Of a DNA stretch of 64,000 bases, positions 25,248-56,237 are shown one piece after another (positions within the stretch are counted from its first letter, which is position 1; each line of letters starts with the position of its first letter). Position numbers and translations under genes: made by a program. The notes below the pieces were generated by a model, which made no database searches, had not been told where the DNA came from, and worked only from the letters and a program-made list of their open reading frames with translations. Origin of the DNA: an uncultured bacterium (lineage in GTDB: Bacteria; Latescibacterota; MWCZ01); the NCBI GenBank assembly GCA_964510105.1, contig CAZEAI010000003.1, positions 31,805 through 95,804 on the forward strand. Direction: 5' to 3'.

Positions 25248-25831
25248 TCAATCACCCTGTGTATGGGTAGTCCCACGACGTTGAAGTAGCAGCCTTCCAC
25301 ACGCGTAACCAGTCCGGCGCCATACCCCTGGATACCATAGGCACCGGCCTTATCATGCGGCTCGCCGGTAGCGATATAGGCACCAATCTCGGCGTCCGTC
25401 GCGCGCCGCATGGTCACTCGCGTCGACTCGCTGGCGGTCATTTCGCCGGCGGCGCCGCCGTCTCGAATCGCAATGCCCGTCACAACGTCGTGCGATCGTC
25501 CGCCCAGCCGACGCAGCATGCGAAAGGCCTCGTCGTCGTCGGCCGGCTTGCCGAGGGTCTCCCCATCGACGACAACCATCGTGTCGGCGCCCAGGATCAC
25601 CGCGTCCTGGTGGTGCTCATGCGCCGCCAGTGCCTTGCGTAGCGCCAACATCTCGACGGCTTCACGAGGAGCCGCACCCGGCGGAGGGCGTTCGTCGGTA
25701 TCCTGCGGGCTCTGTATGAATCTCAGCCCGATCTGTTCGAGAAGCTCGATCCGCCTCGGCGACCGCGACGCCAGCACGAGCGGCTCAGGCTGCCCCTCGG
25801 GGAACCATGGCGACGCTGGACGTCCGAGCAT
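25217..25831 (-). CDS. maf: Maf family nucleoside-triphosphate pyrophosphatase / septum formation protein
   Basis: LVLASRSPRRIELLEQIG ... ILGADTMVVVDGETLGKP ... GAYGIQGYGAGLV motifs. Confidence 0.8.
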   Translation of the reverse strand: MLGRPASPWFPEGQPEPLVLASRSPRRIELLEQIGLRFIQSPQDTDERPPPGAAPREAVEMLALRKALAAHEHHQDAVILGADTMVVVDGETLGKPADDDEAFRMLRRLGGRSHDVVTGIAIRDGGAAGEMTASESTRVTMRRATDAEIGAYIATGEPHDKAGAYGIQGYGAGLVTRVEGCYFNVVGLPIHRVIECLRHMMTSR

Positions 25832-26164
25832 GTCGTTGTGCCGTGCCTCCGCTGCGGACCCCATCGAACCTCTCCCGCCTCACGCCCTTATTTCCGGGCG
25901 TTCGTCGTCGCCGACATGCCCGCCCTGTTGCGTACCGGGAGCCGGGAGACCTATGTTCCATCGGTGTGGCGTGAGTCCGTACTTGACCCGGTTTGGACCG
26001 CTCAGATCGTCGTGTTCAAGCTACGACGGTACCCGATTAAGCCCCTGTGACTGATGGCTGAAGATAAGACACCCGCGGCGGTACACCAACCGAATTCACT
26101 GGCACGTGTCCCCCGCCGGCGACTCACACGATCGAGCGCTACGACGCCGGGCATTGCGCGAGTC

Positions 26165-26989: not shown

Positions 26990-27181
26990 CGTTCACGACG
27001 ATTCGGACGATCGGCAGCCTGATTCTCTACCTAGAGATGTACACACGGTCCGATCCGAGGCCGTCGGGCAACCGATTCGACAGAGAATGGCGTATCTTCA
27101 TTTTGATTGTGCGAGGCCGTCCGGCACCGAAAGCTGGCGCCGACGGCTTGGTCCCATTTCGTCTTTCGGAGGACGAACTAC

Positions 27182-29524
27182 ATGACATCGACTGCAAAGA
27201 GATGTGGCTCGGTCGGGCTCGCCGCTGTGGCGGCGTGGGCGATCGCGGGCTGCGAAATGCCGAGCACCCTTTCTCCGAGTGTGGAGATCGCAACGAATCT
27301 GCCACTGCTGGAAGAGCGGGTGAGCATCGGCGAGGATATAGACGGCTCCGCGGCCGACATTCAGTCAACGGTCGACAACAGGCTCGAGATTCACCTCGTC
27401 GAGGATGAGATCGATCTCGGTGACAACGGATCGGTTGGAAGCGATCGATTCGCCGTTGACGACCAGGCGCCCGAGGTGACCGGCGCGACTGTCGGGCTCA
27501 TCAACGTTGACGACATCCCTCCCGAGACGACGAACAACGTCGCCATAGCGGATGTCGCGCCGGATCTCGTCGGGCAGTTCCCGCCGGGGACCACGATTCC
27601 CTTCATGCCGGGCCAGGAGCTGCCCATGAGCAAGGAGGAGATCACGTTCGAGAAGATCGATAGCGTGAGGTTCTCGGACGAGCAGAGCCCCGACCTGAAT
27701 CGCGTCGTGGTCTCGTTCGAGAACAACACCCCGCTCACCATGGGGCCGGTTTCAATCTATCTCAGCAACAACCCGGATACCACCGCCCAGGGCGATATCA
27801 TCGACCCCTATGCCCAGGTGACACTCACCGATGTACCGCCGGGGCAGACTCGGGCGGCGCCGCCGATCATTCTGAGCGGTGTCACGGTCGCGAGCCCCAC
27901 ATACGTGTTCACGGAGTCGGCGTTCCAGTCGGGCACGAATGTGTCCGCGGACGACCTGTCGGCCGGCTCGTTCGCGACTACCGTGGATATCTCGGCGCTC
28001 GAGGTGGTCTCCGCGGTCGCCGAGATTCCAGAGCAGTCCACTCAACGGAATCGAACCATATCATTCAGCAACGACAAACTCGACCTGATCCAGGTCGACC
28101 TCGCCACGACGGACGCGCAGGACGACAGCAATGAGTTCGTGCTGACGTTCCGCAACGACATCCAGACGCCCATCACGCTCGGATATGAGCTGCCGGACTT
28201 CACCATTCCGAAAACACCTCCCGTCGGCGCAGGCGCCATATCAGGAGTGGTAGGGGGCAACTACGCGAAGGGGGTAATGTCGTTCGCAGCGGGCCAGGAG
28301 CAGGTGATCAGATTCGATCTCGATGGAGCGACGCTGGCAAACGGCACCAGCCCCGGTGATCCGGTCGACGATATCAACATAAACCTGCTGGTCACGGTGG
28401 AAGGCACGGGGAGCACCAGAGTGCCCATAGCGTCCACGGACAGCGTAAACGTCGTCGCGGACGTAAGTGGGCTGGCGATCGAGCGCGTCTTCGGTCGCGT
28501 TCCGCCGGACAGGCCTATTGAGATCTCGATCTCGGAATTCAACATCGGAATCGACCAGAACACTCCCGCCGGAGTGAAAGCGATCCATGCCGTCGCCTTC
28601 GCCTCGTCACTGACGATCGCTACGTTCAGCACCGTCGCGGACGCCGAAGTCGACTTGACCATGGCGGTGGCGGCGTCAGACGGCAGTGGCAGCACGGAAT
28701 ACAGTCGAATTCTGCGCAACGAGATCACCGATGGCGCGGTCATCGAGTTCCGTACCACCGAGGACAGCCTTGGCACCGATGGAGTAACCTCGCCGCTCGA
28801 CATCATTAACGCCGCGCTGGACAACGTGATCGAGACGGGCACGGCGGACATCAGCGTCCGTGGTACTGTGACGATCCGGGGCGATGTGGAACTCATCCGC
28901 AACCAGAGCCGCATCGAAGCCGGAGACATGACCGTCGATATGCCGCTGCAGTTCGACGTTCCAGCTATCACGTTCGATGCGAAGTCCGAGGATTCGGACG
29001 CGTTCAGCATCAGCGTGGGTCAGGGCGTGCGGGACGACATCATACCCAAGGCGCGGTCAGCCGCGCTCGTCGCGCACGTTGAGAACCATTTCCCGCTCGG
29101 CGGCGCGCTGGTCATGTTCGTAAGCCCGGACCCACGCCTTACGCGTCTCCGAAGCGAGTACCCAGCTGACGATCAGGATGCGGTAACGTCCATCCCGAAA
29201 GCTCTGCCGGCAGGCATAGACATCACCGACGTCGACAACTTCGTGGCGCAGAACGGTGTCTACAAGCTCATCGAAATCACGTTGCCGGAACCGCAGCGTC
29301 TCGCCGATGGGTCGATCGACAACGACAACCCGGGCGTCGACACGATAGTGATCTCGCTTGGCGAGGAGGAGCTACAGCTCTTCACGTCGCAGAATCTCTA
29401 TCTGCTGCCACGCATACAGCTAGTGCAGGCACCGGGAGTTGTTCAGTTACGAGCTGACGATCATCTGAACGTGTCCCTGTGGATGCAGTTGAACGCCGAA
29501 ACGAAGAGCGGGGAGGGGTCGTGA
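27182..29524 (+). CDS. large (about 780 aa) Asp/Thr-rich lipoprotein of unknown function
   Basis: Signal peptide with lipobox LAAVAAWAIAGC. Long acidic, repetitive beta-rich sequence. Its stop overlaps the next start (TGATG). Confidence 0.55.
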   Translation: MTSTAKRCGSVGLAAVAAWAIAGCEMPSTLSPSVEIATNLPLLEERVSIGEDIDGSAADIQSTVDNRLEIHLVEDEIDLGDNGSVGSDRFAVDDQAPEVTGATVGLINVDDIPPETTNNVAIADVAPDLVGQFPPGTTIPFMPGQELPMSKEEITFEKIDSVRFSDEQSPDLNRVVVSFENNTPLTMGPVSIYLSNNPDTTAQGDIIDPYAQVTLTDVPPGQTRAAPPIILSGVTVASPTYVFTESAFQSGTNVSADDLSAGSFATTVDISALEVVSAVAEIPEQSTQRNRTISFSNDKLDLIQVDLATTDAQDDSNEFVLTFRNDIQTPITLGYELPDFTIPKTPPVGAGAISGVVGGNYAKGVMSFAAGQEQVIRFDLDGATLANGTSPGDPVDDININLLVTVEGTGSTRVPIASTDSVNVVADVSGLAIERVFGRVPPDRPIEISISEFNIGIDQNTPAGVKAIHAVAFASSLTIATFSTVADAEVDLTMAVAASDGSGSTEYSRILRNEITDGAVIEFRTTEDSLGTDGVTSPLDIINAALDNVIETGTADISVRGTVTIRGDVELIRNQSRIEAGDMTVDMPLQFDVPAITFDAKSEDSDAFSISVGQGVRDDIIPKARSAALVAHVENHFPLGGALVMFVSPDPRLTRLRSEYPADDQDAVTSIPKALPAGIDITDVDNFVAQNGVYKLIEITLPEPQRLADGSIDNDNPGVDTIVISLGEEELQLFTSQNLYLLPRIQLVQAPGVVQLRADDHLNVSLWMQLNAETKSGEGS

Positions 29525-31124: not shown

Positions 31125-32849
31125 TCACTCCTCAACGATAATCGGCACGTCCAGAACGAACTCGGCCTCTGCCGGGACGCATTCCACTCCGCGTTCCAGA
31201 GCGGCGCGCAGAAGCTGCACCGCCATGCCGGACGGCGCGTTGCCTGAGACCGATACCAGCGTAACGGACCCATCCGGCGCGATCCTCACTTGAGGCACGA
31301 CGATCAGCGGATTCGGCCGCTGCGGGGAATATTGAGCTGCAACCCACATCGCCTGCAACACCGACTTCACCGGTCGAAGCGACCGTTCGAGCGAAGGAAT
31401 CGAACGCGGGTGCTGCACGGGCAGATCTGCGTCAGGCAGCAGAAGCGAATCACCATCCGCCTGCACGGCACGCGCCTCTGCCAACCGGTTCTGGACCAGA
31501 ATCTGCCGGAGGTGCACCACGCGAGGCGACGCCTGGTCCTGCCGTACGATGCTCCGAGCGATCTCGGCGATCCGCTCCGAGGACTCCGCGCGGAGACAGC
31601 TCTCGAACAGCGCGGCGAGCGCATCGGTCGCGGGGAGCAATTCCGGCGCCGGTGACGACCATGCGGTATCCGCCACGAATTCGGGTGGGTACGGCGGCGC
31701 GTAGGGTGGCAGCGGCGTCAGGAGGTCGCGCAACCTGATCGCCGGGTCGCGCGACCAGTAGCTGAGGTCGGTCTCGGTACCTGCCAGCCCCATCCACGGT
31801 CCCGCGAGTGCGGATACGTAGAGCGAATCGAGCGCTTGGAGGTCCGCCAGGCGAGCGAACTCAGCGTATTCCCGGACTACGATCGGCGGCGCGTCACCTC
31901 GATTCTCGATGCGTTGCCGCGCGAGGAATGTGCCCAGTTCGCCGGCCTCGCCCGTAGGCATCGCGAAACGAGTCAGGCGGCTCACCGGAGCCGACTCCCA
32001 CCCGCGCATGCGTTCGTTCAGCCATTCGGATCGAGCGATGCCGCCGTCCGCGCGCCTCCTCGCGCCATAGAGCTTCGCCAGATCGTGCCAGACGATCGAG
32101 CGAGCGGTGTCCGATACGCCCGTCTGCCGCAGGAGCACATCCTGACGCCGCCTCGCCTCTTCGTCCATGGGCACGAGGCCGTGAGCCCGCGCATCGCGGA
32201 GGTTCACCGGCCGCGACGTCGCGGTGAACAGGAGGACGTGAAACGGGCCGACTCCCGACTGCGCGCGCAGCGGCAGCACCAGCTTGTCGGTTGGGAAGGC
32301 CACCCTCAGGGCGGGAAACACTCCGGACCCCGGCGCGTGGACTCCCGGCCGCGGGCGTGCGGTGACGAACGAGAAGCCGGCGTAGTGCTCAAGCGACGAG
32401 TTCGACGGCGGCGCGACGCCGTTCGAGGCACACCACTCTCGCACGCTCGCGACGCCGCTCAGGACCGTGACCTCCCACGCATCGGCCTGAGCAGCAGGCA
32501 CGGGATCGACATCGCTAGGAGCGGCGCCGTTGACGTCGTCCACCGGCACTGCGACGCGATCGATCCATCGCCACGCGGAATCAAGAAGCGAGTCGTCAGC
32601 AGCTTCGGCTACGCTCGGCGGCGATTGGACAGGAAGCAGCCACGCGTCCGGTCCCGGTCGCGAGGCGGGATCACCGGCGAACACGGGCTGGATCACGATG
32701 TGCTGCCACCCGCCCTGCCAGAACGCGAGCGCCACCTCCACCGCGAGCCTGCCCGACGCAGGCGCGGGCCGCGCGGGTCTGTCGGCGTGCGCCACCGCGA
32801 CGCAGAGCGCCGCCGCTATCAGGGCTCGTAGTATGCGGGCCGGTCTCAT
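31125..32849 (-). CDS. hypothetical secreted protein (possibly DUF2330-like)
   Basis: N-terminal signal peptide (MRPARILRALIAAALCVAVAHA). Intact 574-aa ORF. The weak resemblance to DUF2330 is uncertain. Confidence 0.4.
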   Translation of the reverse strand: MRPARILRALIAAALCVAVAHADRPARPAPASGRLAVEVALAFWQGGWQHIVIQPVFAGDPASRPGPDAWLLPVQSPPSVAEAADDSLLDSAWRWIDRVAVPVDDVNGAAPSDVDPVPAAQADAWEVTVLSGVASVREWCASNGVAPPSNSSLEHYAGFSFVTARPRPGVHAPGSGVFPALRVAFPTDKLVLPLRAQSGVGPFHVLLFTATSRPVNLRDARAHGLVPMDEEARRRQDVLLRQTGVSDTARSIVWHDLAKLYGARRRADGGIARSEWLNERMRGWESAPVSRLTRFAMPTGEAGELGTFLARQRIENRGDAPPIVVREYAEFARLADLQALDSLYVSALAGPWMGLAGTETDLSYWSRDPAIRLRDLLTPLPPYAPPYPPEFVADTAWSSPAPELLPATDALAALFESCLRAESSERIAEIARSIVRQDQASPRVVHLRQILVQNRLAEARAVQADGDSLLLPDADLPVQHPRSIPSLERSLRPVKSVLQAMWVAAQYSPQRPNPLIVVPQVRIAPDGSVTLVSVSGNAPSGMAVQLLRAALERGVECVPAEAEFVLDVPIIVEE

Positions 32850-32925
32850 GTCTCAGGATCCTCTCGGGACGTCATGTGCGCAACTCCGTAATATGCGCGG
32901 CCTGGTCGCCACGCTCAACGCCGAG

Positions 32926-33034
32926 CAGTTGTCCCGCAGCCAGCAGGCAGTTGTCCCGCAGCCAGCAGGCAGCTGTCCGACGGCCAACGAGTAGTTGTCC
33001 CGCGGCCAACGCCTGTTGTCCGGCGACCAGCCTG
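32926..33034. repeat. tandem array of about five 22-bp direct repeats (two perfect CAGTTGTCCCGCAGCCAGCAGG units plus three degenerate units)
   Basis: Directly visible in the sequence at 32926-32947 and 32948-32969 (identical), then degenerate copies to about 33034. Located in the divergent promoter region between the 31125..32849 gene and lysS. Confidence 0.7.
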
Positions 33035-33102
33035 AAAGGTACATTCAAAGGACCGAAACGCCCGTCTTTCCTTTGAGTTCCCCCAACGTCGCGAGGGCGC
33101 AC

Positions 33103-34620
33103 GTGGAGTATCAGCAGCAACTCATCGACCAGCGAATCGCAAAGCTCGAACGGCTTCGCGAACTCGGCGTCGAGCCATATCCGTACCGGTATGAGCCGAC
33201 GCATATCAGCCGCGATATTGTGGAGAACGCCGAATCTCTCGACGGCGGGCAGGTATGCGTCGCCGGGCGCCTGCGATCGATTCGGGGGAAGGGGAAGACC
33301 GCCTTCGCCCACCTCCAGGATGCCGAGGGACAGATTCAGCTCTACGTCCGCCGAGATATCGTGGGAGACGACGTCTACGCCGCGTGGAAACAGCTTGACA
33401 TCGGCGATATCGTCGGCGTCGAGGGACCGGTCTTCAGCACCCGGACGGGCGAGGTCACGGTCCAGGCGGATCGGCTCACTATCCTGACGAAGAGCATCCG
33501 CCCGCTGCCGGTGGTGAAGGAACGCACCGTCGACGGCGAGCGCGAGACCTACAACGACATCGCGGAGAATACCGAGCTACGCTACCGGCATCGCGCGGTG
33601 GACCTCACGGTGAATCCGAGCGTGCGAGAGGTATTCCGCAGCAGGGCGCGAGTCATGCGCGCGCTACGGGATGTGCTCCATGATCGCGGCTTCATCGAGG
33701 TCGAAACGCCGACGCTCCAGCCGCTCTACGGCGGGGCGAACGCGCGCCCGTTCAAGACGCACCACAACGCGCTCGATCTCGACCTGTACCTCCGCATCAG
33801 CCCGGAGCTGTACCTGAAGCGCCTCATCGTCGGCGGGCTCGACCGCGTGTATGACCTGTCGAAGAACTTCCGCAACGAGGGGATCGACCGCACGCACAAT
33901 CCCGAGTTCACCATGCTGGAAGTGTATCAGGCGTATGCCGACTACACCGACATGATGGCGCTCACCGAGGATCTCTACGCGGCGGCGGCACAAGCGGTAC
34001 TCGGCGGCCTGAGCATCACGTACCAGGGCACGGAACTCGACTTGACGCCCCCGTGGGAACGGCTCACCATGGCCGATGCCATCAAGCGACACACCGGTAT
34101 CGACGTGGATGCCATCGACGAGGACGAGCTACGGCGGCACGTCGCCGAGCGCGACCCCGATATCGCGGACGACCTGCCGCCCGGCCTGCTCATCGCGGAG
34201 CTGTTCGAGCAGCGCGTGGAGCAGCACCTCACCGGTCCGGTGTTCATCACCGAGCACCCGCTGGAGACGACGCCCCTCTGCAAAGCGTCGAGGACCACGC
34301 CGGGACGGATCGAGCGCTTCGAGCCGTATATCCTCGGCTGGGAGATCGGCAACGCGTATTCCGAGCTTAACGACCCGGTCCGGCAGCGCGAGCTGCTGAC
34401 GGATCAGGCGGCGGATCGCGATGTGGATGGCGAGGTGCCGCCGCTCGACGAGGACTTCCTGCAAGCCATCGAAACGGGCATGCCGCCGACCGGCGGTCTC
34501 GGGCTGGGCGTCGACCGTCTCGTGATGTTCCTGACGGACCAGCCTTCGATCCGCGACGTCATAGCGTTCCCCACGCTCAGACCCGAACGCGCGGACACCG
34601 GCGCTCCGGACGAGAAGTAG
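33103..34620 (+). CDS. lysS: lysine--tRNA ligase (class II)
   Basis: Class II aaRS motifs, OB-fold anticodon-binding N-domain (CVAGRLRSIRGKGKTAFAHLQD), catalytic core (FRNEGIDRTHNPEFTMLEVYQAY; motif 3 region GLGLGVDRLVMFL). The start is set to the in-frame GTG 33103 with GAGGG upstream because the annotated ATG 32995 lies inside the repeat array. Confidence 0.8.
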   Translation: MEYQQQLIDQRIAKLERLRELGVEPYPYRYEPTHISRDIVENAESLDGGQVCVAGRLRSIRGKGKTAFAHLQDAEGQIQLYVRRDIVGDDVYAAWKQLDIGDIVGVEGPVFSTRTGEVTVQADRLTILTKSIRPLPVVKERTVDGERETYNDIAENTELRYRHRAVDLTVNPSVREVFRSRARVMRALRDVLHDRGFIEVETPTLQPLYGGANARPFKTHHNALDLDLYLRISPELYLKRLIVGGLDRVYDLSKNFRNEGIDRTHNPEFTMLEVYQAYADYTDMMALTEDLYAAAAQAVLGGLSITYQGTELDLTPPWERLTMADAIKRHTGIDVDAIDEDELRRHVAERDPDIADDLPPGLLIAELFEQRVEQHLTGPVFITEHPLETTPLCKASRTTPGRIERFEPYILGWEIGNAYSELNDPVRQRELLTDQAADRDVDGEVPPLDEDFLQAIETGMPPTGGLGLGVDRLVMFLTDQPSIRDVIAFPTLRPERADTGAPDEK

Positions 34621-38394: not shown

Positions 38395-38931
38395 ATGCAG
38401 TGTCAGCGGTGTAGTGAAAACGAAGCGACGGTCGCCGTAACGACCGTGGTCGAGGACGACCGTTCGACCGAGCACCTCTGCCGCGTCTGCGCAAAAGAGG
38501 CCGGTGTGGAACTTGGCGCGGAGTGGTCACCGGCGAAGGAGACAACGTCGCCCATGCAGGATGCGAGTGGCGAGCCGATTGCGCACGACGAAGAAGAGGA
38601 ACTCGTGTGTCCGCGATGCGGGCTTTCGTTCCGGCAGTTCAAGGAACGATACCGGGTAGGGTGCGCCGAGTGCTACGATGCATTTCGCGAGCGCATGTCG
38701 CCGCTTCTGCGAAAGGTCCACTCCGCCGATGCTCACACCGGCAAACGGCCCGGCGGAACGAAGCAGGCCGGAGCGGCTGAGAACGACGCCTGGGCGATAG
38801 AAGTGCTGAAGCGACGACTGCAAGCCGCGGTTGAGCGTGAAGAGTTCGAAGAGGCGGCGGGGCTGCGCGACCAGATCAACGAGTACGAGCGTCGCCAGAG
38901 CGCAGACCTCGAGGAGCCGGACGGGCAATGA
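38395..38931 (+). CDS. mcsA: McsA-like protein-arginine kinase activator (double CxxC zinc fingers + UVR motif)
   Basis: CQRCSE...CRVCAKE and CPRCG...CAECYDAF zinc-finger pairs. UvrB/C-like motif (EEFEEAAGLRDQINEYE). Confidence 0.7.
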   Translation: MQCQRCSENEATVAVTTVVEDDRSTEHLCRVCAKEAGVELGAEWSPAKETTSPMQDASGEPIAHDEEEELVCPRCGLSFRQFKERYRVGCAECYDAFRERMSPLLRKVHSADAHTGKRPGGTKQAGAAENDAWAIEVLKRRLQAAVEREEFEEAAGLRDQINEYERRQSADLEEPDGQ

Positions 38932-39986
38932 AGCTCCATGACCTGGTAGATCATTCCGCGGCGTGGCTGGACGCCTCGGGCCCGTACTCCGATGTGATCG
39001 TGTCGAGCCGCGTCAGGCTGGCCCGTAATCTGAGAACCGTACCGTTCACGACTCAGAGCACGCCCGACGAAGAGATCGGGGTCGTCGAAGCCGTGCTTGG
39101 CGCCGCGCAATCGTCCCCCCATCTGCGGGACGGGACGTACTTCGACGTGGCTGCCATGACGGAGGACGACCGGCAGCTCCTGGTCGAACGGCGCCTCATC
39201 AGCCCGGCGCTGGCCCTGCGGAAGGGGCGAGGCGGCGTGCTCGTGGGGCCCCACGAACGTTTCAGCATCATGATCAACGAGGAGGATCACCTACGTTTCC
39301 AGGCGCTCTTCGCCGGGTTTGAGCCGGAGACCGCGTGGTCGCTCGTTGACAGCATCGACGACGATATCTGCGGCGGTCTGGACATCGCTTTCGACGAACA
39401 GATGGGCTACCTGACCGCGTGCCCGACGAACATCGGCACGGGACTGCGCGCCTCAACGCTCATCCATCTGCCGGGACTCGTGCTGGTGGAGTCGATCGAA
39501 GAGGTGCTCCGAGGGATCAACCAGGTGGGCCTCACCGTAAGAGGATTTTACGGGGAGGGCACTGAAGTCGTCGGTAGTTTGTTTCAAGTATCGAACCAGG
39601 TGACGCTCGGAACGTCCGAGTCGGATATCCTGGAAATGCTGGCACGAGTCGTGCGACAGATCATCGACTACGAATACGACGCTCGGCAGACGCTCCTACG
39701 GGACGCAGAGGCGCAGATTGAGGACAAGATCGGCCGGGCAATCGGGATACTCACTCACGCGCACGTTCTGAGCGGCCAGGAGTTCATGAACCTGACCTCG
39801 GCAGTCCGGCTCGGAGTCGGGCTCGGCATACTGAAGCGCCCTGAGACGAAGTTGCTGAACGAACTCATGGTGCAGACGCAGCCGTCGCACATTCAGCGCC
39901 GGGCGGGTTCCCCGGTTGAAAGCGACGAACGCGATCAGCACCGTGCGGAGCTAGTGCGTTCCCGGCTCGCCAACGGCACGACGTAA
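38928..39986 (+). CDS. mcsB: protein-arginine kinase McsB (ATP:guanido phosphotransferase)
   Basis: Phosphagen-kinase active-site motif CPTNIGTGLRAS and flanking conserved segments. 4-bp overlap with mcsA. Confidence 0.85.
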   Translation: MKLHDLVDHSAAWLDASGPYSDVIVSSRVRLARNLRTVPFTTQSTPDEEIGVVEAVLGAAQSSPHLRDGTYFDVAAMTEDDRQLLVERRLISPALALRKGRGGVLVGPHERFSIMINEEDHLRFQALFAGFEPETAWSLVDSIDDDICGGLDIAFDEQMGYLTACPTNIGTGLRASTLIHLPGLVLVESIEEVLRGINQVGLTVRGFYGEGTEVVGSLFQVSNQVTLGTSESDILEMLARVVRQIIDYEYDARQTLLRDAEAQIEDKIGRAIGILTHAHVLSGQEFMNLTSAVRLGVGLGILKRPETKLLNELMVQTQPSHIQRRAGSPVESDERDQHRAELVRSRLANGTT

Positions 39987-40097
39987 GCGAGTCGGCTATC
40001 GCAGCAACGTAGCGCTCCGGAAGGCAGCGAGTCAGCGTCAGGGCAACACGTTACCTCAACACTACCCGCAGTACATAATGAGTCGGAGGCCATCTCC

Positions 40098-42608
40098 ATG
40101 GATCAGATGTTTACGGAACGCGTCAAGAAGGTGATGATTCTCGCTCGCGAGGAGTCTCAGCGTCTCGGGCACGACTATGTCGGCACCGAGCATCTTCTGC
40201 TGGGACTCATCAAGGAGGGCGAGGGAGTCGCCATCACGGTCCTGACTAACCTCGGGCAGGACCCCGATACCATTCGCCAGTCCGTAGAGGACGCGGTGGC
40301 TCAGACCGGCGGCCAGATGCTCATGGGGCAGGCGCCGTTCACACCGAAGGCGAAGGAGATCCTCGATCTCGCGACGAAAGAGGCGAAGGAGATGAAGGTG
40401 CAGTACGTCGGCACCGAGCATCTCCTGCTGGCGCTGACGAAGGATCGCGAGAGCGTGGCCGCGCAGATACTCACGGCGCTCGGCGCGGACTACAAGACGA
40501 TCAAGGAAGAGATCATCTCCGTCATCACCGGCGGCGGCAAGGCGGGGCAGCCTAAGGACAAGAAGAGCAAGACGCCCTTCCTCGACCACTTCGGCCGCGA
40601 CCTCACGAAAATGGCGCGCGAAGACGCACTCGATCCCATCATCGGTCGCGAGAAAGAAATCGAGCGAGTCAGTCAGGTGCTCAGCCGGCGGAAGAAGAAC
40701 AATCCGGTGTTGATCGGGGAACCGGGCGTCGGTAAGACGGCGATCGCCGAAGGACTCGCGCAGAAAATCATCGCGAAGGAAGTACCCCACGTCCTCGAGA
40801 ACAAGCGTGTGGTGACGCTCGACATGGGCGGCATCGTCGCGGGAACGAAGTACCGCGGTCAGTTCGAGGAGCGCGTCAAGGCGATCATGAATGAGCTGGT
40901 GCAGAACCGCGAAGTGATCATCTTCATCGACGAGCTGCACACGATCGTCGGCGCGGGGTCCGCAGAAGGGACGCTGGACGCCTCCAACCTGTTCAAGCCG
41001 GCGCTTTCGCGGGGCGAGCTTCAGTGCATCGGCGCGACGACACTCGACGAGTACCGGAAGTACATCGAGAAGGACGGAGCGCTCGAACGACGGTTCCAGA
41101 CGATCATGATCGAGCCGCCCTCGCAGGAGGACACAGTCCAGATACTGCTCGGATTGCGCCCGAAATACGAGGAGCATCACCGGGTGCAATATCCGGACGC
41201 TTCGATCGAGTCCGCGGTCATTATGGCTGAACGCTACCTCCACGACCGGTACCAGCCGGACAAGTCGCTCGACGTGATCGACGAAGCTGGGTCGCGCGTG
41301 CGTCTCAGTCGCGTGTCCGTCCCCGATGAAGTGAAGGAACTCGAGGTCCAGATCGCCGACATCGAACGCCAAAAGGAAAGCGCGGTCAACGAGCAGGAGT
41401 TCGAGAATGCCGCGAACCTGCGCGACACGGAACGGCGCCTGCTCGAACAGCTTGCGGCTGCGCGCAAGGACTGGGAGCAGTCGCGCGAGCACGATGTCGT
41501 GGAGGTCACCGAGGACGATATCGCATACGTCGTCAGCAACATGACGGGCATCCCGGTGTTCCGGCTGGCGAAGGACGAATCGACGAAGTTGCTTCACATG
41601 GATGACGAGCTTCAGAAGCGAGTCGTCGGACAGGAGAACGCGATCAGCGCCGTCTCGCGAGCCATCAGGCGGTCTCGCAGTGGGCTGAAGGACCCGAACA
41701 GGCCCATCGGTTCGTTCGTGTTCCTCGGCCCGACCGGCGTTGGCAAGACGGAACTTGGCAAGGCTCTCGCGTCGCAGCTTTTCGACGACGAGGACGCGGC
41801 GATCATCATCGACATGTCGGAGTTCATGGAGAAGTTCGCTGTAAGCCGTCTCGTGGGAGCGCCCCCGGGCTACGTCGGATACGACGAAGGCGGGCAGCTC
41901 ACGGAGAAGGTGCGGCGGAAGCCCTACTCGGTGATTCTCCTGGATGAGGTGGAAAAGGCGCACCCGGATGTGTTCAACATCCTGCTCCAGGTGCTCGACG
42001 ACGGCCGTCTCACCGACAGCTACGGTCGGAAGGTCGATTTCCGGAACACGATCCTCATCATGACGTCGAATCTGGGTAGCCGGGATATCGGCGACCTGAC
42101 GGGGTTCGGCTTCACGGCCCGCGATGGAATCCCCTCGCGCTCCGAGATGGAGACGGCCATTAACCGTGAACTCAAGCAGGCATTCAATCCGGAGTTCCTG
42201 AATCGTATCGACGAGGTCGTGATCTTCAACACGCTCACACATGAGAACATGCTGGAAATCTGCGACATCGTCATCGCCGACGTGCGGAAGCGCGTGGTGG
42301 ACCGCGCGCTCTCGATCGAGCTCGGCGACGATGCGAGGAATCTCCTGGCGGAGAAGGGCTTCGATCCGAAACTCGGTGCCCGTCCCCTGAAGCGCACCAT
42401 CCAGCGACTGCTGGAGGATCCGCTATCGGAGGAGATTCTCGCCGGGAAGTTCGCCGATGGCTCGACGATCCTCGTGGGCACAGACGGCGAAGCTTTGACC
42501 TTCACGTTGGCGGACACGCCGGATGCTGGGTCGGACAACGGCGGGGATGGAGGCTCGGGAACCGCCGAGCCGACGGAACCTGTCTCCGTCGACGCGGAAT
42601 CGAACTGA
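40098..42608 (+). CDS. clpC: ATP-dependent Clp protease ATP-binding subunit ClpC
   Basis: Double Clp_N repeats, two AAA+ modules (GEPGVGKT; GPTGVGKT), UVR motif between modules, sensor and ClpB_D2-small. 836 aa. Confidence 0.9.
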
Positions 42609-42797: not shown

Positions 42798-45700
42798 ATG
42801 GCCCAACCTGTGCGACACCGACACCGGTGGCTGACGCCGACGCTGATCGTCGTCGGCGTGCTGACGATCGCAGTGGGACTGTGGGCGGCTCGCACGGTAT
42901 ATCTGCTGGCGGAGAACCTGCGGGAAATCGTCTCCTCGGAGTTCTCGGCTCGAACCGGAGGAACGGTTCGGGTGGCCGATCTCTCGTGGAACTGGCGCTA
43001 TCTGGAGTTCACGTCTGTCGAAGCGGACGCGCCGATGCTGCCCGGCGCGGTGCACCTCCCGACGGTGCGCGTGCACGTGCGGCTTCGCGCCGCGATGGCT
43101 CGCGATCTTCTGGCCGCGGTCGACCGCATCGAACTCGCCTCTCCCACCGTGGTTGTGGACAGAAGCATCGTCGAGCGGGCGAAACAGTGGCGCGACCAGC
43201 CCCCCGTGGACGATGTCGGGCCAATCCCGCGAATGGAGATCGTCGTCGATGATGGCACGGTTCTCTGGCGCGAGGAAGGCACTGACAGCACGGTAGCCGT
43301 CGCGACAGGCATTTCCGGCTGGGTGTCCGTCTCGGATGACGTCGTCCTGAACGTGAGCGGCAGCCTGCTCAGCGGTGAGGTGAACGCGGCAGCCCGGGGA
43401 GTGATCCCGCTCAACGGCGGCAGGCCCGAGGTGGAGCTGTCGGCCGTTCACGTCGATCTGCGCCGCTTCGATCTCGCGGCCGTCGGTTCCGCGGAGGGTC
43501 GAGCGGACCTCTCCGTATCGCTGAACGAGGAAGTGACGGCGCGCCTGGCCCTCACGGGCGCCGAGTTCATCACACGTGACGACATACGGATCGGTCCGAT
43601 CACTACGGAAGTCGCGATCGATGGCAACGCGGCAAGCTGGACGCAGACGGACCTGCCCATCGGCGGGCTGATCCTGAGCACAGTCGGATGCGTGACCTGG
43701 GGCGATGAGCCGTTCATCGACGCACAGGCACGCTGGTCCGGCGACGTGGATCGGCTTGGCAATCTAGTGAGCGATCGGCTGGCGGAACTGCGCGGGAACG
43801 TTCGCGGCAGAATCGACGTGTCGGGACCGCTCAAGAGCCCATCCATCGTATTCGACGCCATGTCGGATTCGCTCCGAGCCGGTCGCCTGATCCTCAGCCG
43901 CATCGGACTCCGAGGGCACACGGAGCCGATGGCCGATGGGCAGGATTCACCGCAGCTAACGTTGGACACGTTCGGCGCCACGTTCGGCAACGACCGCATC
44001 GACGGGACCGGCAGCGCGACGCTGTCTCCTCTCGACGTAGCACTACGGCTGCGCCCCGCCCGGATCCGTCTGGCGTCGCACGAGTCACTTGCCGACGCGG
44101 AGATCACGGGCAGCGTCGTCGTATCTGGCGAAGCCCGGCTGCGCCCCTCCGGGTCCACCGCGTCGCTCCGCATCTCGGATGTCGACGCGCGGATCTCGGG
44201 CCGTTCCCCACCGCTGAGAAGCATCACGGCCACGTATGACTCCTCGGGCATGCTCAGCCTCGCCGGGCATGGACCGGGCCTCGTACTCGCGGCGATCGTC
44301 GACGAAGACAGTCTGCTTGGCGCCCGCCTGACGGGCTCGCTGGACATCTCCGACTACTCGCTGCCGCTCGGCGACCCGCCGGCGGGTGCGCGTGGAGCCC
44401 TGGCGTTCTCGGCAGACGCCAGCGGCCTGCAGCTTGGCGGCGACGTGATCCTTCAGCCTCACAACAGGGACGCGTTCCCGGTGTCCGTCCAGGTGGAGAG
44501 CCGATTCTCGGAGCCGGGCAGTACGACCGTGCGGCTCGCAACGACTTCACTTCCGTACTCGGTGCTGAGACTGGATGCGAACGCCGTGCTCACACTCGAA
44601 AACGGCTCGTGGAGCGTTCAGGGATGGGCCTGGCGCGGCGCGCTGCAGTTCGGCGGGAGGATCGGCGGCGCACGAGATTTCGCCGCGCTTATCCGTGTGC
44701 ACAGAGCCCCCGTGGAGGAGTTGTCCGGCGTCATCCGGATGGACAAGTTCATGACCGCCGGCACCGTCTCCGGGCGTCTGCGCATTGAGAGTACACCCAC
44801 GCGCGGGCTCTCCGGAAGCGGCGATTTCACCATCAGCGACATGACCATGAAGCAAGTGGACTCTCTGCAAGCAAGCGCCAGCATCAACATCACTCCGGCA
44901 GAGGTGTCGTGGAAATCGGGTCCGGTCACGCGAAACGGACGGACCATGGCGTTCACCTCGGGCTCGTACGCCATCCGCAATCGAGTCGCGTCCATAGACA
45001 TCTGGGGCCCTCCGGACGGAAGGATAGAGCATGGTCTCGCGCTCGGGGGGGTATCGCTCAACGCATCGGGAGACGCGCTCTGGTCGGTCGGCATAGTCGA
45101 TACCACGGGCGACGTTCACCCGGCCCGCCTCGACATTGAAGTCCTCGCCACCGACGGCGAACTGCTCACCATACCGTTCGACACCACGCAGATACGCCTG
45201 AACGGAAACACGCACTGGCTGGACTTGGAATACGCGTATCTCTCGAAACACAGATTCTACACGGCTGCGGCCGACGTGGGGCGAGTGCCGGTGGCCCCGC
45301 CCGATGGTGGCGAGTTCGACATCCCGATTCACGTCCGCGATGAGCCTGGGAACGACGTTCTCTGGCTGCTCACACGGCTCATCGACCAGGGCGTCGACGG
45401 CAACGGCTCGGGGCAGGCGTACATCCGAGTGGCCGGGCCGAGCTCGGAGGTCGTGATCGGGGAGGGCTGGGTCCAGATCGACGACGGCACGCTGCGATGG
45501 CCCGGGGGCATCTGGCCTGAGTGGCAACAACTCACAGGTAGGGCTGCGATCGCGCCGGGAGAGCGCTTCATCCGGCTGGAGAACCTGTCGGCCTCCGTCG
45601 GAACCGGGTTCGTGACGGTGAGCAACACTCCGGCGAGCGGGATGGGCGCCACGGCACTCACGATTCCGGCCATAGGGGCGAGCCTGGGAACGCTCCAGAT

Positions 45701-47015
45701 CGAAACGCCCGAGCCCATCCCGCTGCACGTGCGAGGGGGAATGCCGGAGGGCGAATCGCTTGATATCGACCTCAGCGGCAACGAGGTCGTTGAGCGCTTC
45801 ACGATCGCAGGCCCGTGGGAGCACCCGCTTTTCGTCGGCAGCTCCACGCTCAGCAACGGGTTCTTCACGTATCCGCTTGAGGGCGCGTCCGACTCCGACA
45901 CGTTGGATGCAGATGGCGGCAGCTTTGTCGAGAACGTCAACTGGCAGGTGGACCTCGTATCCGGACCCAATCTGACGTACGAGACACGATCCACGCAGAC
46001 GTTGTGGCGCGGCCTGATGCGGGACCCGATAGAACTTCTCGGCTCGATGGCCGCTGAGATGGAGGCGCGTCTCAGCGAGGGGGGTAGAGTCGAACTTCGC
46101 GGCATCTACGCCGACAGCAGCCTGAGCATCATCACGGACAACCTGGTAAGCGATCAGGGACGCATGTCGGTACTCGACATCGACTTCCGCCCGGACGGCC
46201 CCCTCGTGCTGGACTGGGATACACGCGCCGATCCGGAGCCGCTTATCAGAGGTCGCGGCGTCGCGGAGGTCGAGATCGACCAGGATGCCTATGGCGAGCC
46301 GGATGCCGGCTCGGGAAGCCTCAGCCGCGAACGCCAGTACCAGAAAATCTACGCCCGCCTCGTGAGTGTAGATCCGCTGACCGGCGTCGTTCGGGAGGGC
46401 GGCAGGCTGGGAGAGCTACGCGTCGAGCTTGACACGGATGCGAGTCGTCAGGGACCCGTCGGCGAGCGCCAACAGCTCGCGGTCTTGCGCATGCTCGGGT
46501 ACCACGCTCCGGTACTCGGCGAGCAGGACTACGACCCGGCGGAGTCGCAGAGCATCGATCCGAAGGACATTGTGACGGCGGGCTATCGGACGCTCCTGAG
46601 ACGGAGCGAGCAGCAGGCGTGGAGGTCGCTGTTCTACCCGTTCCGGCGACAGATACGCAAACTCACGCGCATCGACGTTGTGGAAGTCGAACCATCGTTC
46701 GTGCTAAATCTGCTCGATCGCGATACATACAGCCGGCAGGAACTCACTCCCGAGCAGGCGTACCTGACCTATCTGCAGGGCACGAACTGGACCGTGGGCG
46801 AGTACGTGTGGGGACGATTCCTCTTGTCGTACCATGGCGAACTCGAGCTGACGAGCATCGCACGACCCACTATCGGCGCACGTCACGAGATCGGCGTCGA
46901 GTGGGCCATCAGCCCGCAGACTCGACTCGAACTCAGCCGCGATATCGATGTACCCATCGGCGAGCCAGATACTCGGATCGGCCTGTCGCATCGGTTCGCA
47001 TTCCAGTCATACTAG
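42798..47015 (+). CDS. tamB: translocation-and-assembly-module TamB-like protein (AsmA/DUF490 family), 1405 aa
   Basis: N-terminal signal anchor (LTPTLIVVGVLTIAVGLWAA). Very long beta-rich repetitive body. C-terminal DUF490-like end (...RIGLSHRFAFQSY). Confidence 0.6.
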   Translation: MAQPVRHRHRWLTPTLIVVGVLTIAVGLWAARTVYLLAENLREIVSSEFSARTGGTVRVADLSWNWRYLEFTSVEADAPMLPGAVHLPTVRVHVRLRAAMARDLLAAVDRIELASPTVVVDRSIVERAKQWRDQPPVDDVGPIPRMEIVVDDGTVLWREEGTDSTVAVATGISGWVSVSDDVVLNVSGSLLSGEVNAAARGVIPLNGGRPEVELSAVHVDLRRFDLAAVGSAEGRADLSVSLNEEVTARLALTGAEFITRDDIRIGPITTEVAIDGNAASWTQTDLPIGGLILSTVGCVTWGDEPFIDAQARWSGDVDRLGNLVSDRLAELRGNVRGRIDVSGPLKSPSIVFDAMSDSLRAGRLILSRIGLRGHTEPMADGQDSPQLTLDTFGATFGNDRIDGTGSATLSPLDVALRLRPARIRLASHESLADAEITGSVVVSGEARLRPSGSTASLRISDVDARISGRSPPLRSITATYDSSGMLSLAGHGPGLVLAAIVDEDSLLGARLTGSLDISDYSLPLGDPPAGARGALAFSADASGLQLGGDVILQPHNRDAFPVSVQVESRFSEPGSTTVRLATTSLPYSVLRLDANAVLTLENGSWSVQGWAWRGALQFGGRIGGARDFAALIRVHRAPVEELSGVIRMDKFMTAGTVSGRLRIESTPTRGLSGSGDFTISDMTMKQVDSLQASASINITPAEVSWKSGPVTRNGRTMAFTSGSYAIRNRVASIDIWGPPDGRIEHGLALGGVSLNASGDALWSVGIVDTTGDVHPARLDIEVLATDGELLTIPFDTTQIRLNGNTHWLDLEYAYLSKHRFYTAAADVGRVPVAPPDGGEFDIPIHVRDEPGNDVLWLLTRLIDQGVDGNGSGQAYIRVAGPSSEVVIGEGWVQIDDGTLRWPGGIWPEWQQLTGRAAIAPGERFIRLENLSASVGTGFVTVSNTPASGMGATALTIPAIGASLGTLQIETPEPIPLHVRGGMPEGESLDIDLSGNEVVERFTIAGPWEHPLFVGSSTLSNGFFTYPLEGASDSDTLDADGGSFVENVNWQVDLVSGPNLTYETRSTQTLWRGLMRDPIELLGSMAAEMEARLSEGGRVELRGIYADSSLSIITDNLVSDQGRMSVLDIDFRPDGPLVLDWDTRADPEPLIRGRGVAEVEIDQDAYGEPDAGSGSLSRERQYQKIYARLVSVDPLTGVVREGGRLGELRVELDTDASRQGPVGERQQLAVLRMLGYHAPVLGEQDYDPAESQSIDPKDIVTAGYRTLLRRSEQQAWRSLFYPFRRQIRKLTRIDVVEVEPSFVLNLLDRDTYSRQELTPEQAYLTYLQGTNWTVGEYVWGRFLLSYHGELELTSIARPTIGARHEIGVEWAISPQTRLELSRDIDVPIGEPDTRIGLSHRFAFQSY

Positions 47016-52956: not shown

Positions 52957-55326
52957 ATGACCGGCACGCATACTCTCGACGTCCTCGAATTCCCTCGAGT
53001 GAAGACTCTCATCGCCGAACTCGCGGCTTCCGCGTTCGGGCGGGAGGCGGTTGAGCAGTCCGAACCCTTGTCCGACCCCGATGACATCCGTGAGCAACTC
53101 GCGTTTGCCGACGAGATGGCGCAGGCTGTCCGCTGGGGTGACCCGGTTCCCATGGGCGGACTGCGCGACATCCGGAACGCGCTCGCAGTCGCCGAGCACC
53201 CCGGCTCCCGAATAGATCCGACTGAACTCCTCGAACTAGGCGACACGATCCGTTCGACGGGTCGCATCAAGTCCCATTTTGGCTCTCGGCGGGAGAAGTA
53301 CCCACGCATCGCCGACATCGCGTCGGCGATCGAGGACGCAAGCGATCTCGCGGCCAAGATCGACCGAATCGTCGACGGAGGCGGCTTCGTGAAGGACTCG
53401 GCCAGCTCGAAGCTGGCGCGCCTCCGACGCGACCTCGATCAGGAGCGGCAATCGTTGCGCTCGGGGCTCGACCGCATGGTGAACCGCCTTTCGGACGACG
53501 TGATCGGGGACCGGGTCGTGTCGTTCCGGGCCGGGCGGCCGGTCATACCGATTCGCGCAACTCACCGGAACCGGCTGCCGGGCATCGTGCATGACCAGTC
53601 CGCCACAGGTCAGACGATCTTCGTCGAGCCGATGGAATCGGTTGAGCAGTCGAATCACATACGACAGCTTGAGCTTGACGAAGAGCGCGAGGTCGAACGC
53701 ATCCTCACCGAGCTGACCGACGCCGTCAGGGAGCACGTCCCGGCCATACGTTCGACGCTGACGGTGGTGCGGGAGCTGGACCGTCTCTACGCCATCGCGT
53801 CGTACGCGGACACATCGAACGGCGTCGCTCCGACGATCAGCGACGACGGCACGTTCAAACTCGTCGAGATGCGACACCCGCTACTCGACGAACGTCTGCG
53901 CGCCGAGGGTGGCGAGGGCGCCGTTCCCGTCACGGTACGTCTGACCGGCGATCAGCGAATCGTGGTCGTCAGCGGCCCCAATGCCGGCGGCAAGACCGTC
54001 GCGCTGAAGACCATCGGGCTGGCAAGCGTGATGGCGCAGGCGGGATTCCTCATTCCCGCGGGCCATCTCACCGTATTGCCCACGTTCACGACCGTATTCG
54101 CGGAGATCGGCGACGAGCAGTCCATCGAGCAGGATCTTTCCACGTTCAGCTCTCGCATGGGGCACCTTGCCCGCATTTCCGAGGAGGCCGACAGCGATAC
54201 CCTCGTGCTCATCGACGAGCTTGGCTCAGCTACGGACCCGGAGCAGGGCGCCGCTCTCTCGCGCGCGCTGCTCAGCCGATGGGGAGATCGGGGCGCGCTC
54301 GCGATCGTAACGACTCACCTCGGCGCGCTCAAGGAATTCGCCCACGAGCATCCCCGCGCGGCGAATGCATCGATGGAGTTCGATCAGGAGTCGCTCAGTC
54401 CGACGTTCCGGCTGCACCTCGGAATCCCCGGATCCAGCTACGCGCTGGAGATATCGCGGCGAGTCGGGTTGGAGCAGGAGATCATCGACGACGCGGAACG
54501 CCAACTCGGCGAGGATGTCGTCCGCACGGAAGAACTCATCGCCGACCTCACGAGGCGGCTCGAACGGGCTGTCGAGCGCGAACGCGAGCTGGAACGGCGG
54601 GCTCGGGAGCTTGAGACCCGCGAATCGGAATACGAGGAACGATTCTCCGCCGTGCGCGCCGACCAGAAACGGCTGGTTCGCGAGGCCAACGAGAAGGCGG
54701 AGAAGATCCTGCTCGATTCCCGTGCGCTCGTGGAGCGGACCGTCGCGGAGCTGCGTCGGACGCAAGCTTCCAGCGACGCCATACGCGAGGGGCGGCATTC
54801 GATTCAGGAGTCGCTTGCCGAGACTCGAAAGGCCATCGAGGCAAGTGCGCCGGAGCCGGTGGTCCGCACCGACAAGCTTGAGGTTGGTGATTGGGTGCGT
54901 GTGGCAAGCCTGGGCCTGACTGGCGAACTCGTGGCGCTCGACAAGCACCGTGGGGCCGTCCAGACGGACACCGCCCGGATGGAGGTCTCCGCCGATCAGA
55001 TCGAGCGCGCGGGGGAACGTCCACGCGGCCGCGCGACGAAGGGCGGCGGCGTCTCGGCCCAGACGTCCGCGGCAGACACGTTCAAACCCGAGATCGACGT
55101 GCGCGGCCTGACGTTCGACGACGCGTGGACACTCGTCGACCGGTATCTCGACGACGCCGTGCTGGCCAGGTATCCCCGCGTGCGCATCATTCACGGCAAG
55201 GGAACCGGCGCACTGAGGAAGAAATTCGGCGAGCAGCTCGCCGGCGACGACCGCGCGGGTTCACATGCGCTCGGGGAACTGCACGAGGGCGGCATCGGCG
55301 TGACCGTCGTGAACGTGCGGAGTTGA
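52957..55326 (+). CDS. mutS2: endonuclease MutS2 (MutS domain V ATPase + C-terminal Smr domain)
   Basis: Walker A (SGPNAGGKTV), ST..DELG.ATDP, long coiled-coil, C-terminal Smr (IDVRGLTFDDAW...IIHGKGTGALR). Confidence 0.85.
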   Translation: MTGTHTLDVLEFPRVKTLIAELAASAFGREAVEQSEPLSDPDDIREQLAFADEMAQAVRWGDPVPMGGLRDIRNALAVAEHPGSRIDPTELLELGDTIRSTGRIKSHFGSRREKYPRIADIASAIEDASDLAAKIDRIVDGGGFVKDSASSKLARLRRDLDQERQSLRSGLDRMVNRLSDDVIGDRVVSFRAGRPVIPIRATHRNRLPGIVHDQSATGQTIFVEPMESVEQSNHIRQLELDEEREVERILTELTDAVREHVPAIRSTLTVVRELDRLYAIASYADTSNGVAPTISDDGTFKLVEMRHPLLDERLRAEGGEGAVPVTVRLTGDQRIVVVSGPNAGGKTVALKTIGLASVMAQAGFLIPAGHLTVLPTFTTVFAEIGDEQSIEQDLSTFSSRMGHLARISEEADSDTLVLIDELGSATDPEQGAALSRALLSRWGDRGALAIVTTHLGALKEFAHEHPRAANASMEFDQESLSPTFRLHLGIPGSSYALEISRRVGLEQEIIDDAERQLGEDVVRTEELIADLTRRLERAVERERELERRARELETRESEYEERFSAVRADQKRLVREANEKAEKILLDSRALVERTVAELRRTQASSDAIREGRHSIQESLAETRKAIEASAPEPVVRTDKLEVGDWVRVASLGLTGELVALDKHRGAVQTDTARMEVSADQIERAGERPRGRATKGGGVSAQTSAADTFKPEIDVRGLTFDDAWTLVDRYLDDAVLARYPRVRIIHGKGTGALRKKFGEQLAGDDRAGSHALGELHEGGIGVTVVNVRS

Positions 55327-55451
55327 CAACCCACCGCCTCGTTGGTTCATTTTGTATGACTGCTGGAACCGCCAGCACCCTCGCTCGTCACACAGTACAG
55401 CCCGGGAACCGCACGTCCTGTTCCTCGGTGGTCAGCAGGGAGGTGGCCGGT

Positions 55452-56237
55452 ATGAAACGCGAGACCCTTCTGCGGTTCACGCTCCTGGTGGCGCTGTCAC
55501 TCGCCGCCGGTGGATGCTACACGGTTCTCACTCACCCGCAGACTACGCCGGAACAGCACGTCACTGACACCGGTGACGTGCTCGCGCCGAACGACTGCTC
55601 GGGATGCCATTCGGGCAGCGAACTCTGGTCATACCACCACGACGCCTACTGGCTCGCCCCGAGCCATCATAGCAGCCTGTCCGGCCCGAGCCATCGCAAC
55701 AGCCTGTCGGGCTACTACGCCTACCGCTACGACCATCTCTTCGTCGGACATCGCTGGTACAATCGCCGTTACTACGATCGCTGGGCATGGTATTACTACC
55801 AGCCGTGGTGGATGTATGACCGCCATCCGCAGCGAGGAGACCATTACGGTCGGCCTGCCGAACAACGACCCACTAGGCATCTCGGCGACCGTCGCGATGG
55901 GTACGACCGTCAGGAGCCGCGCAGCGAGTTCACGCCATATATCGGACCGGGCACCGGCCCCATGACATTCTCGTCTCCGCTTCAGCCCGCGGCGTCGACC
56001 GGCTCGACGGGGCGAGCGCGAACCACTGGCGGCGGCGCTGAAGTGAACGCTGACACGTCGAACGAGCGCAAACTCGGAGATCGGCGGGCCGATCCTCCGG
56101 CTGCTGCGCCCACAACAACTCAGCCGTCGTCGTCCGGTGGCAGCAGGCCAGCGCAGGACGGCGCCAGCAGCGACTCCAACGACGACGGTGACGATGAGCA
56201 ACCTCAGCGGCGACGGCTAGGGGATCGACGCCGCTAG
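55452..56237 (+). CDS. lipoprotein with a single CxxCH motif and an extreme Trp/Tyr/Arg/His-rich low-complexity region
   Basis: Lipobox LAAGGC. NDCSGCHSG (CxxCH). RWYNRRYYDRWAWYYYQPWWMYDRHPQRGDHYGRP. C-terminal Ser/Asp-rich tail. The ORF-track N-extension from 54891 runs inside mutS2 and is rejected. Confidence 0.45.
   Translation: MKRETLLRFTLLVALSLAAGGCYTVLTHPQTTPEQHVTDTGDVLAPNDCSGCHSGSELWSYHHDAYWLAPSHHSSLSGPSHRNSLSGYYAYRYDHLFVGHRWYNRRYYDRWAWYYYQPWWMYDRHPQRGDHYGRPAEQRPTRHLGDRRDGYDRQEPRSEFTPYIGPGTGPMTFSSPLQPAASTGSTGRARTTGGGAEVNADTSNERKLGDRRADPPAAAPTTTQPSSSGGSRPAQDGASSDSNDDGDDEQPQRRRLGDRRR

Follow-up and report, generated by a model that had tools for sequence, protein, structure and literature searches.

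The array considered here lies within a 253-bp intergenic region between two diverging genes, in a stretch of 64,000 nucleotides that we refer to as the window. On the plus strand is lysS (33103..34620), which begins with GTG and encodes a class II lysyl-tRNA synthetase of 505 amino acids with the Pfam domains PF01336 and PF00152 (tRNA_anti-codon and tRNA-synt_2). On the minus strand is a gene of 574 codons (31125..32849) whose product has a signal-peptide-like N terminus and a weak match to DUF2330; its orthologues in L083, L089, and the P0006 contig match PF10092, and we call it the DUF2330-like gene. The flanking genes, as assigned by Pfam, are PriA, RodZ-like, FGE-sulfatase, DUF5723, DUF2330-like, LysS, M32 peptidase (carboxypeptidase), MacB/FtsX, ABC ATPase, McsB, and ClpC, all of them chromosomal housekeeping or envelope genes. 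The order DUF5723, DUF2330-like, lysS, M32, FtsX, ABC is also present in relatives. The closest named LysS proteins carry the label Latescibacteria, and the closest species-representative genomes, which are Gemmatimonadota and Latescibacterota MAGs, have LysS proteins that are only 57% identical and are too distant for a comparison of upstream DNA.

Other features of the neighborhood deserve mention in their own right. A few kilobases 3′ of lysS, at 38928-42608, a gene for an McsB-like arginine kinase (ATP-gua_Ptrans) is followed by clpC, and in L091 (6567-7503) UVR-domain (McsA-like) genes and mcsB lie downstream of lysS, FtsX, and the ABC gene; this looks like a Firmicutes-style McsAB-ClpC module whose linkage is conserved in the lineage. 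Three predicted ORFs in the window, at 27107-29524 (805 aa), 42798-47015 (1405 aa), and 25410-26054 (214 aa), are without a Pfam match at the E <= 1e-5 threshold and may encode lineage-specific proteins.

The start of lysS is well defined. The gene calls of two public assemblies (P0001 and P0122) give the same 505-aa product from the GTG at 33103, and a Shine-Dalgarno-like GAGGG (33093..33097, plus strand), in which GAGG is conserved in our alignment, is positioned 5 nt 5′ of this codon. In every relative, lysS starts with a homologous GTGGA preceded by GAGG, indicating that the GTG start is ancestral. A mechanically derived ORF opens farther upstream, at TTG 32995, and reads in frame into lysS; the OB-fold domain found by Pfam begins at residue 87 of this long ORF, which corresponds to residue 51 counted from the GTG. 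An earlier, sequence-only reading of this DNA proposed that the repeats force lysS to start at a GTG below an annotated ATG. We find no in-frame ATG between 32995 and 33103, and relatives that lack the array share the GTGGA, so the start codon has not been displaced by the array.

In the array itself (32926-33034), five units follow one another head to tail, the first four of them 22 bp long and the last 21 bp. Unit 1 (32926-32947, plus strand, as are all units) reads CAGTTGTCCCGCAGCCAGCAGG, and unit 2 (32948-32969) has the same sequence. They are followed by unit 3 (32970-32991; CAGCTGTCCGACGGCCAACGAG), which matches unit 1 at 15/22 positions and is listed as the most diverged, unit 4 (32992-33013; TAGTTGTCCCGCGGCCAACGCC), which matches at 16/22, and the promoter-proximal, 21-bp unit 5 (33014-33034; TGTTGTCCGGCGACCAGCCTG), which matches at 15/22. 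The sequence-only reading was thus right that 22-bp tandem direct repeats occupy this interval, that the first two are perfect copies, and that they lie between the two diverging genes, in non-coding promoter DNA 5′ of lysS. Its further description of the later copies as progressively degenerate does not hold, given that units 3-5 are about equally distant from unit 1 (15-16/22). Four units carry the proposed shared core, GTTGTCC(C/G)G, unchanged, and unit 3 departs from it with GCTGTCCGA. Likewise, TTGTC(C/T) is kept in every unit but unit 3, which has CTGTCC. Between-unit divergence in the array is 27-36%, and its GC content is ~64%.

Tandem Repeats Finder (TRF) reports the array with a period of 22, both as 5.0 copies with a score of 97 and as 3.8 copies with a score of 105, and it is the top-scoring tandem repeat of the 64-kb window. 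The exact 22-mer occurs twice, against 0.00 occurrences expected from shuffled sequence. A search of the 64 kb for TTGTCC-N5-CCARC with at most one mismatch returns all five units and one further site, at 37377, which is coding; outside the array, no intergenic site is found. Among JGI metagenome contigs, the exact 22-mer is matched only once, by chance, in an unrelated coding region of L001. We can dismiss an assembly artifact, because the independent JGI assembly L082 contains an array and intergenic region identical to those of the window and the ENA assembly L095, from a close strain, contains a four-unit version. Apart from the array, just one notable tandem repeat is present in the window, at 55658-55712, where two copies of a 27-bp unit (CCCGAGCCATCACAACAGCCTGTCCGG; 85% matches, TRF score 82) lie inside a 448-aa ORF (54891-56237, plus strand); because it is within an ORF and its length is a multiple of 3, this unit is probably a 9-residue peptide repeat.

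Comparison with more distant relatives places the array in context. We compared the upstream DNA of six related species (L083, L084, L085-L088, L089, and L090), whose LysS proteins are 66-72% identical to that of the window, together with that of L091 (62%); the relatives P0002, P0004, and P0006 (68-74% identical) contributed gene maps only and stand outside this comparison of upstream DNA. With TRF, the array is detected in front of lysS only in L082, where it is identical, and in L095; nine other relatives have none. The array therefore appears to be confined to the species-level lineage of the window. Instead of an array, L083, L084, L085-L088, L089, and L090 each have exactly one copy of GTTG-N20-GTACATT 5′ of lysS, usually in the form cAGTTG ... 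GGTACATT, with the CAG 5′ of TTG kept in most relatives. Besides the Shine-Dalgarno region, this element is the sole alignable part of the relatives' intergenic regions. Both GTTG and GGTACATT, including the spacing between them, are invariant in an alignment of the window with L083, L084, L085, and L089, and a pattern search for GTTG-N20-GTACATT adds L082 and L086-L090. The element lies 57-86 nt 5′ of the start codon, except in L083, where the distance is 268 nt. At the equivalent position, L091 has the near-consensus TTGACC-N18-TATATT.

Several smaller features of the relatives' lysS leaders also came to light. In L083 (2735-3000; LysS 72% identical), ~190 extra nucleotides separate the conserved promoter from the lysS start and contain two GC-rich hairpins, ccctccccgtgcgcggggaggg and cccccgcgtgcgggggg. 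This stretch, to which Rfam gives no gathering-level match, may be a leader RNA or an insertion of the REP/MITE type. A second motif, GTTGC(A/G)G(T/A)(C/A)CG, recurs in the lysS 5′ leaders of L083 (2945-2960), L085 (2955-2970), and L084 (1483-1495), ~30-50 nt 5′ of the start, and may be a conserved leader element, although it is not clearly present in the window. In L085 (2982-3005), of the P0007 lineage, a 12-bp unit (GGATTCCGGGGA / GGATTCCGTGGA) is duplicated over the lysS ribosome-binding site and start codon, making this a second small tandem duplication at the lysS locus, in a different species.

The conserved element has the features of a promoter, and we infer that it is that of lysS. 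In the window, the putative −35 hexamer is the TTGTCC of unit 5 (33016..33021, plus strand), whose GTTG recurs unchanged and in the same register in six related species, and the putative −10 hexamer is TACATT (33040..33045, plus strand), within the GGTACATT that is invariant in the relatives. The 18 nt between them give TTGTCC-N18-TACATT, which agrees with sigma-70-type geometry (TTGnnn/TAnnnT, 17 ± 1 nt), and transcription of lysS would begin near 33052. The candidate matches the sigma-70 consensus at 8/12 positions, and because this score falls under the 9/12 cut-off of the promoter scanner, the scanner listed no promoter between 32600 and 33300; a wider promoter scan was uninformative, with 3 matches against 2.9 expected. 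To our knowledge, no promoters have been mapped in the lineage of the array's host. A sigma-54 promoter was also considered and was rejected by eye, with no TGGCAC-N5-TTGC on either strand.

Only unit 5 has the conserved −35/−10 geometry in the window. At 16-18 nt 3′ of the TTGTCC of units 1-4, the sequence is TTGTCC, TGTCCC, or GTCCCG, none of which is −10-like, so these units are predicted to lack a −10 partner and not to be complete promoters. Unit 1, moreover, begins with 11 nt (CAGTTGTCCCG) that match exactly the single-copy −35 region of the relative L084. Because of this match and the conserved geometry at unit 5, the repeated unit is best understood as the lysS promoter's own −35 hexamer, together with 3 nt upstream of it and 13 nt of the spacer.

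On the other side of the array, we identified a candidate promoter for the divergent gene (32890..32918, minus strand), in which a putative −35 hexamer TTGAGC (32918->32913) is separated by 17 nt from a putative −10 hexamer CATATT (32895->32890). Both hexamers are the same in L095, and TTGGCC-N17-CATATT in L089 (2855-2885) is the counterpart of this candidate; none is obvious by eye in L084 or L090. From the candidate divergent −35 to the TTG of unit 1 in the window is 10 bp, and in L089 the two −35 boxes are ~15 bp apart. The ancestral promoters would thus have stood back to back with their −35 boxes ~10-15 bp apart, and the array would therefore have grown between them.

The close strain L095 (P0121) allows this growth to be followed. 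Its LysS is 97% identical to that of the window at the amino-acid level, its intergenic region is 231 bp rather than 253 bp, and its array has four units rather than five. Units 1 and 2 of the window each differ at 3 positions from the first L095 unit, unit 4 differs at 3 positions from the third, which is its orthologue, and unit 5 differs at 1 position from the fourth. Unit 3 differs from the second L095 unit at 7 positions, a poor match of uncertain orthology. Because units 1 and 2 both match a single L095 unit, so that unit 2 is without a counterpart of its own, their duplication is later than the strain split. In L095, TRF also detects a higher-order periodicity of 44 bp (84% matches, score 127), which indicates an earlier duplication of a two-unit block and suggests that the array grew by successive blocks.

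The same two strains reveal how fast the units change. At four-fold synonymous sites of four genes, 105/924 positions differ (11.4%), compared with 16/388 in other intergenic DNA (4.1%) and 2/89 in unit 5, the core promoter, and the 5′ UTR (2.2%). The orthologous distal units differ at 11/66 positions (16.7%), with 2 indels in addition. Between these two strains, the distal units are distinguishable from other intergenic DNA (Fisher p = 5e-4) and not from four-fold sites (Fisher p = 0.23), and given these rates they appear to drift approximately neutrally. As judged from these substitutions, the lysS promoter (unit 5, core, and 5′ UTR) is under purifying selection, and the distal units are not detectably so. 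Within the units, TGTC and CCA.C are invariant in 8/8 distinct units of the two strains, which are few and non-independent; this invariance could mean weak constraint on a bipartite motif or, equally, recent common descent. Of the 11 distal substitutions, 3 fall in the 11 core positions (TGTC and CCA.C), a comparison that involves very few events.

Taken together, these observations lead us to favor, with a probability of roughly 0.7, the interpretation that the array is a young, lineage-specific, copy-number-variable minisatellite (VNTR) derived from the −35 segment of the lysS promoter. Each testable feature of an intergenic VNTR is found here, namely head-to-tail copies, a difference in copy number between strains, a single-copy progenitor, and signs of recent duplication. 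In the mechanism that we propose, replication slippage or unequal recombination would have amplified a 22-bp segment of the lysS core promoter, running from 3 nt 5′ of the −35 hexamer through 13 nt of the spacer, with the number of units passing from one to two, to four, and then to five. Unit 5 alone would act as the −35 of the sigma-70-type lysS promoter, as it is the sole copy 18 nt from TACATT. Units 1-4 would be nonfunctional or at most weakly functional filler, without a sequence-specific role, drifting near-neutrally while copies are gained and lost. The main physical effect, and the one that is certain, is on spacing, with the candidate divergent promoter shifted by 88 bp in the window and by ~66 bp in L095. 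Such a spacing or insulating effect on both promoters could be selectable even without selection on the sequence of the units.

In an alternative view, a DNA-binding regulator would occupy the units as phased sites, recognize approximately TTGTCC-N5-CCARC, and control lysS and/or the DUF2330-like gene, with copy number as a rheostat; candidates for this role would be nucleoid-associated proteins, response regulators, and other multimeric factors. The regular 22-bp spacing corresponds to ~2.1 helical turns, the TGTC and CCA.C positions are invariant across the units of both strains, unit 4 contains an imperfect palindrome (GTTGtCC-N3-GGcCAAC), and the CAG kept 5′ of TTG in most relatives is more than a −35 hexamer needs. 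There is also precedent for expression being tuned by repeats upstream of a core promoter, as described for the promoter-proximal repeat tract of Helicobacter pylori sabA (PMC4081817). Against such a role, six related species share this gene arrangement and lack the array, the number of units is unequal between close strains, and the distal units, which exceed both synonymous and other intergenic sites in divergence, give no sign of purifying selection. No convincing site for the motif was found elsewhere in the 64 kb searched, and no regulator gene adjoins the locus according to Pfam. OmpR/PhoB-type half-sites were considered for the unit and rejected by eye, as its 11-bp halves are alike at only 5/11 bases, unlike such half-sites. 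The conservation that marks regulator boxes is missing from the array, whose sites are not kept in orthologous promoters and do not change more slowly than neutral DNA, and we regard control by a regulator as unlikely.

The units might instead act through RNA polymerase itself. In one form of this idea sigma region 4 would land on the extra −35-like boxes or be drawn to them as decoys, and in another the array would be a length-dependent insulator that relieves interference between the divergent promoters; selection would act on length or copy number and not on exact sequence. The retention of TTGTC(C/T) in all units but unit 3 is consistent with this idea, as is the tight ancestral arrangement, with −35 boxes 10 bp apart in the window (measured to unit 1) and ~15 bp apart in L089. 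An array that drifts quickly yet is kept in both strains is likewise what length-only selection would produce, although retention in two close strains needs no selection. The relatives, however, do without a spacer, as the start codon of their divergent gene is only 64 nt (L084) or 44 nt (L090) from the lysS −35, and the GC-rich array (~64%) is unlike UP elements. Overall, an effect of the repeats on polymerase is improbable in our estimation. A more ambitious proposal, in which selection maintains the array as a cis-regulatory module tunable by copy number, balancing expression of lysS against that of the secreted DUF2330-like protein with the units as a rheostat, strikes us as unlikely; the phased TTGTCC-N5-CCARC boxes could in that case be bound by a dedicated regulator or by sigma region 4.

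The sequence-only reading likened the array to iterons or to other multimeric regulator sites, and neither likeness is supported by the comparison with relatives, in which six species have the −35 segment as a single copy, the array belongs to one lineage, and its strains have five or four units. The proposal that a Rep-type initiator binds the units as iterons, at the replication origin of a plasmid or of the chromosome, is effectively refuted: a 22-bp unit in direct orientation and five copies are within the typical iteron range, but the features that define iterons are missing, with no Rep or initiator family among the 14 flanking genes (Pfam), no AT-rich unwinding segment (GC 0.60-0.65 over 32800-33300), no DnaA box (TTATCCACA, <=1 mismatch) in the intergenic region and 4 in the window against 3.8 expected, no similarity in a blastn search against 72,556 plasmids, units that differ among themselves by 27-36%, and housekeeping synteny that is conserved in relatives without the array. 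Also effectively refuted is the idea that the repeats are transcribed or translated, either as a low-complexity N-terminal extension of LysS, which the sequence-only reading had named as the finding that would overturn its view, or as a T-box or lysine riboswitch leader RNA: although the mechanical ORF from TTG 32995 is in frame with lysS, a period of 22 bp, not being divisible by 3, shifts the reading frame at each unit and permits no repeated peptide, the gene calls and the relatives all begin at the GTG with the OB-fold starting at residue 51, the conserved −10 is 3′ of the array, which is hence outside the lysS transcript, the best Rfam hits are to unrelated families (E = 4.3) with no gathering-level match in the relatives, and RNA folding gives z-scores of −1.9 (array) and +1.1 (5′ UTR).

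If the array is, as we favor, a minisatellite derived from the lysS promoter, then what had resembled an iteron or regulator array becomes, on comparison with relatives, the gene's own −35 segment multiplied and decaying neutrally, and the case offers a clean negative. It would illustrate how slippage can reshape a back-to-back pair of divergent promoters in an uncultured Latescibacterota-like bacterium. A VNTR that has four units in one strain and five in another is a ready strain marker for the population, and a by-product of the comparison is the definition of a conserved candidate lysS promoter for the lineage, cAGTTG-N20-GTACATT. Should copy number alter expression, this would be an instance of promoter-repeat tuning in a housekeeping rather than a virulence gene.

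Known repeat systems provide a further frame for the array. The iterons of theta-plasmid origins such as those of pSC101, RK2, F, and P1 are direct repeats of 17-22 bp in about 4-7 copies; unlike them, the array is chromosomal, is without a rep gene, an AT-rich DNA-unwinding element (DUE), or DnaA boxes, has more diverged units, and is absent in relatives. In Pho-box and OmpR-type arrays, similar half-sites recur every 11 bp, and the arrays are conserved between species and among the members of a regulon. The present array resembles these in having helix-phased direct repeats at and upstream of the −35 position, and differs from them in its dissimilar halves (5/11 bases shared), its absence of conservation, and its neutral drift.

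Closer parallels are found among promoter-associated repeats. In Mannheimia haemolytica, species-restricted repeats upstream of the core lkt promoter, in the divergent artJ-lkt region, have 10-bp, A-rich units (ACAAAAAACA) and have been proposed to permit phase-variable expression of LktA (PMC2697988). Like these, the present array occurs in one species of a genus, lies in a divergent region 5′ of a core promoter, and varies in number and sequence along the strain phylogeny, and in both cases the perfect units are viewed as hotspots of expansion and contraction; its units, in contrast, are 22 bp long, GC-rich, derived from a −35 segment, and mostly degenerate. The dop, lpdA, and cysG promoters of Mycobacterium tuberculosis contain copy-number-variable tandem repeats (VNTR3690 and QUB15) with units of 54-58 bp that are described as copies of the promoter, and more copies may mean more activity (PMC12817950). 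The present unit differs in being only 22 bp, in comprising a −35 and half a spacer rather than a full promoter, and in preceding the gene for a housekeeping aminoacyl-tRNA synthetase. The two systems nevertheless share a head-to-tail duplication of promoter sequence just 5′ of the gene, variation between close strains, and some imperfect copies, and for both, strand slippage or recombination is thought to be the mechanism.
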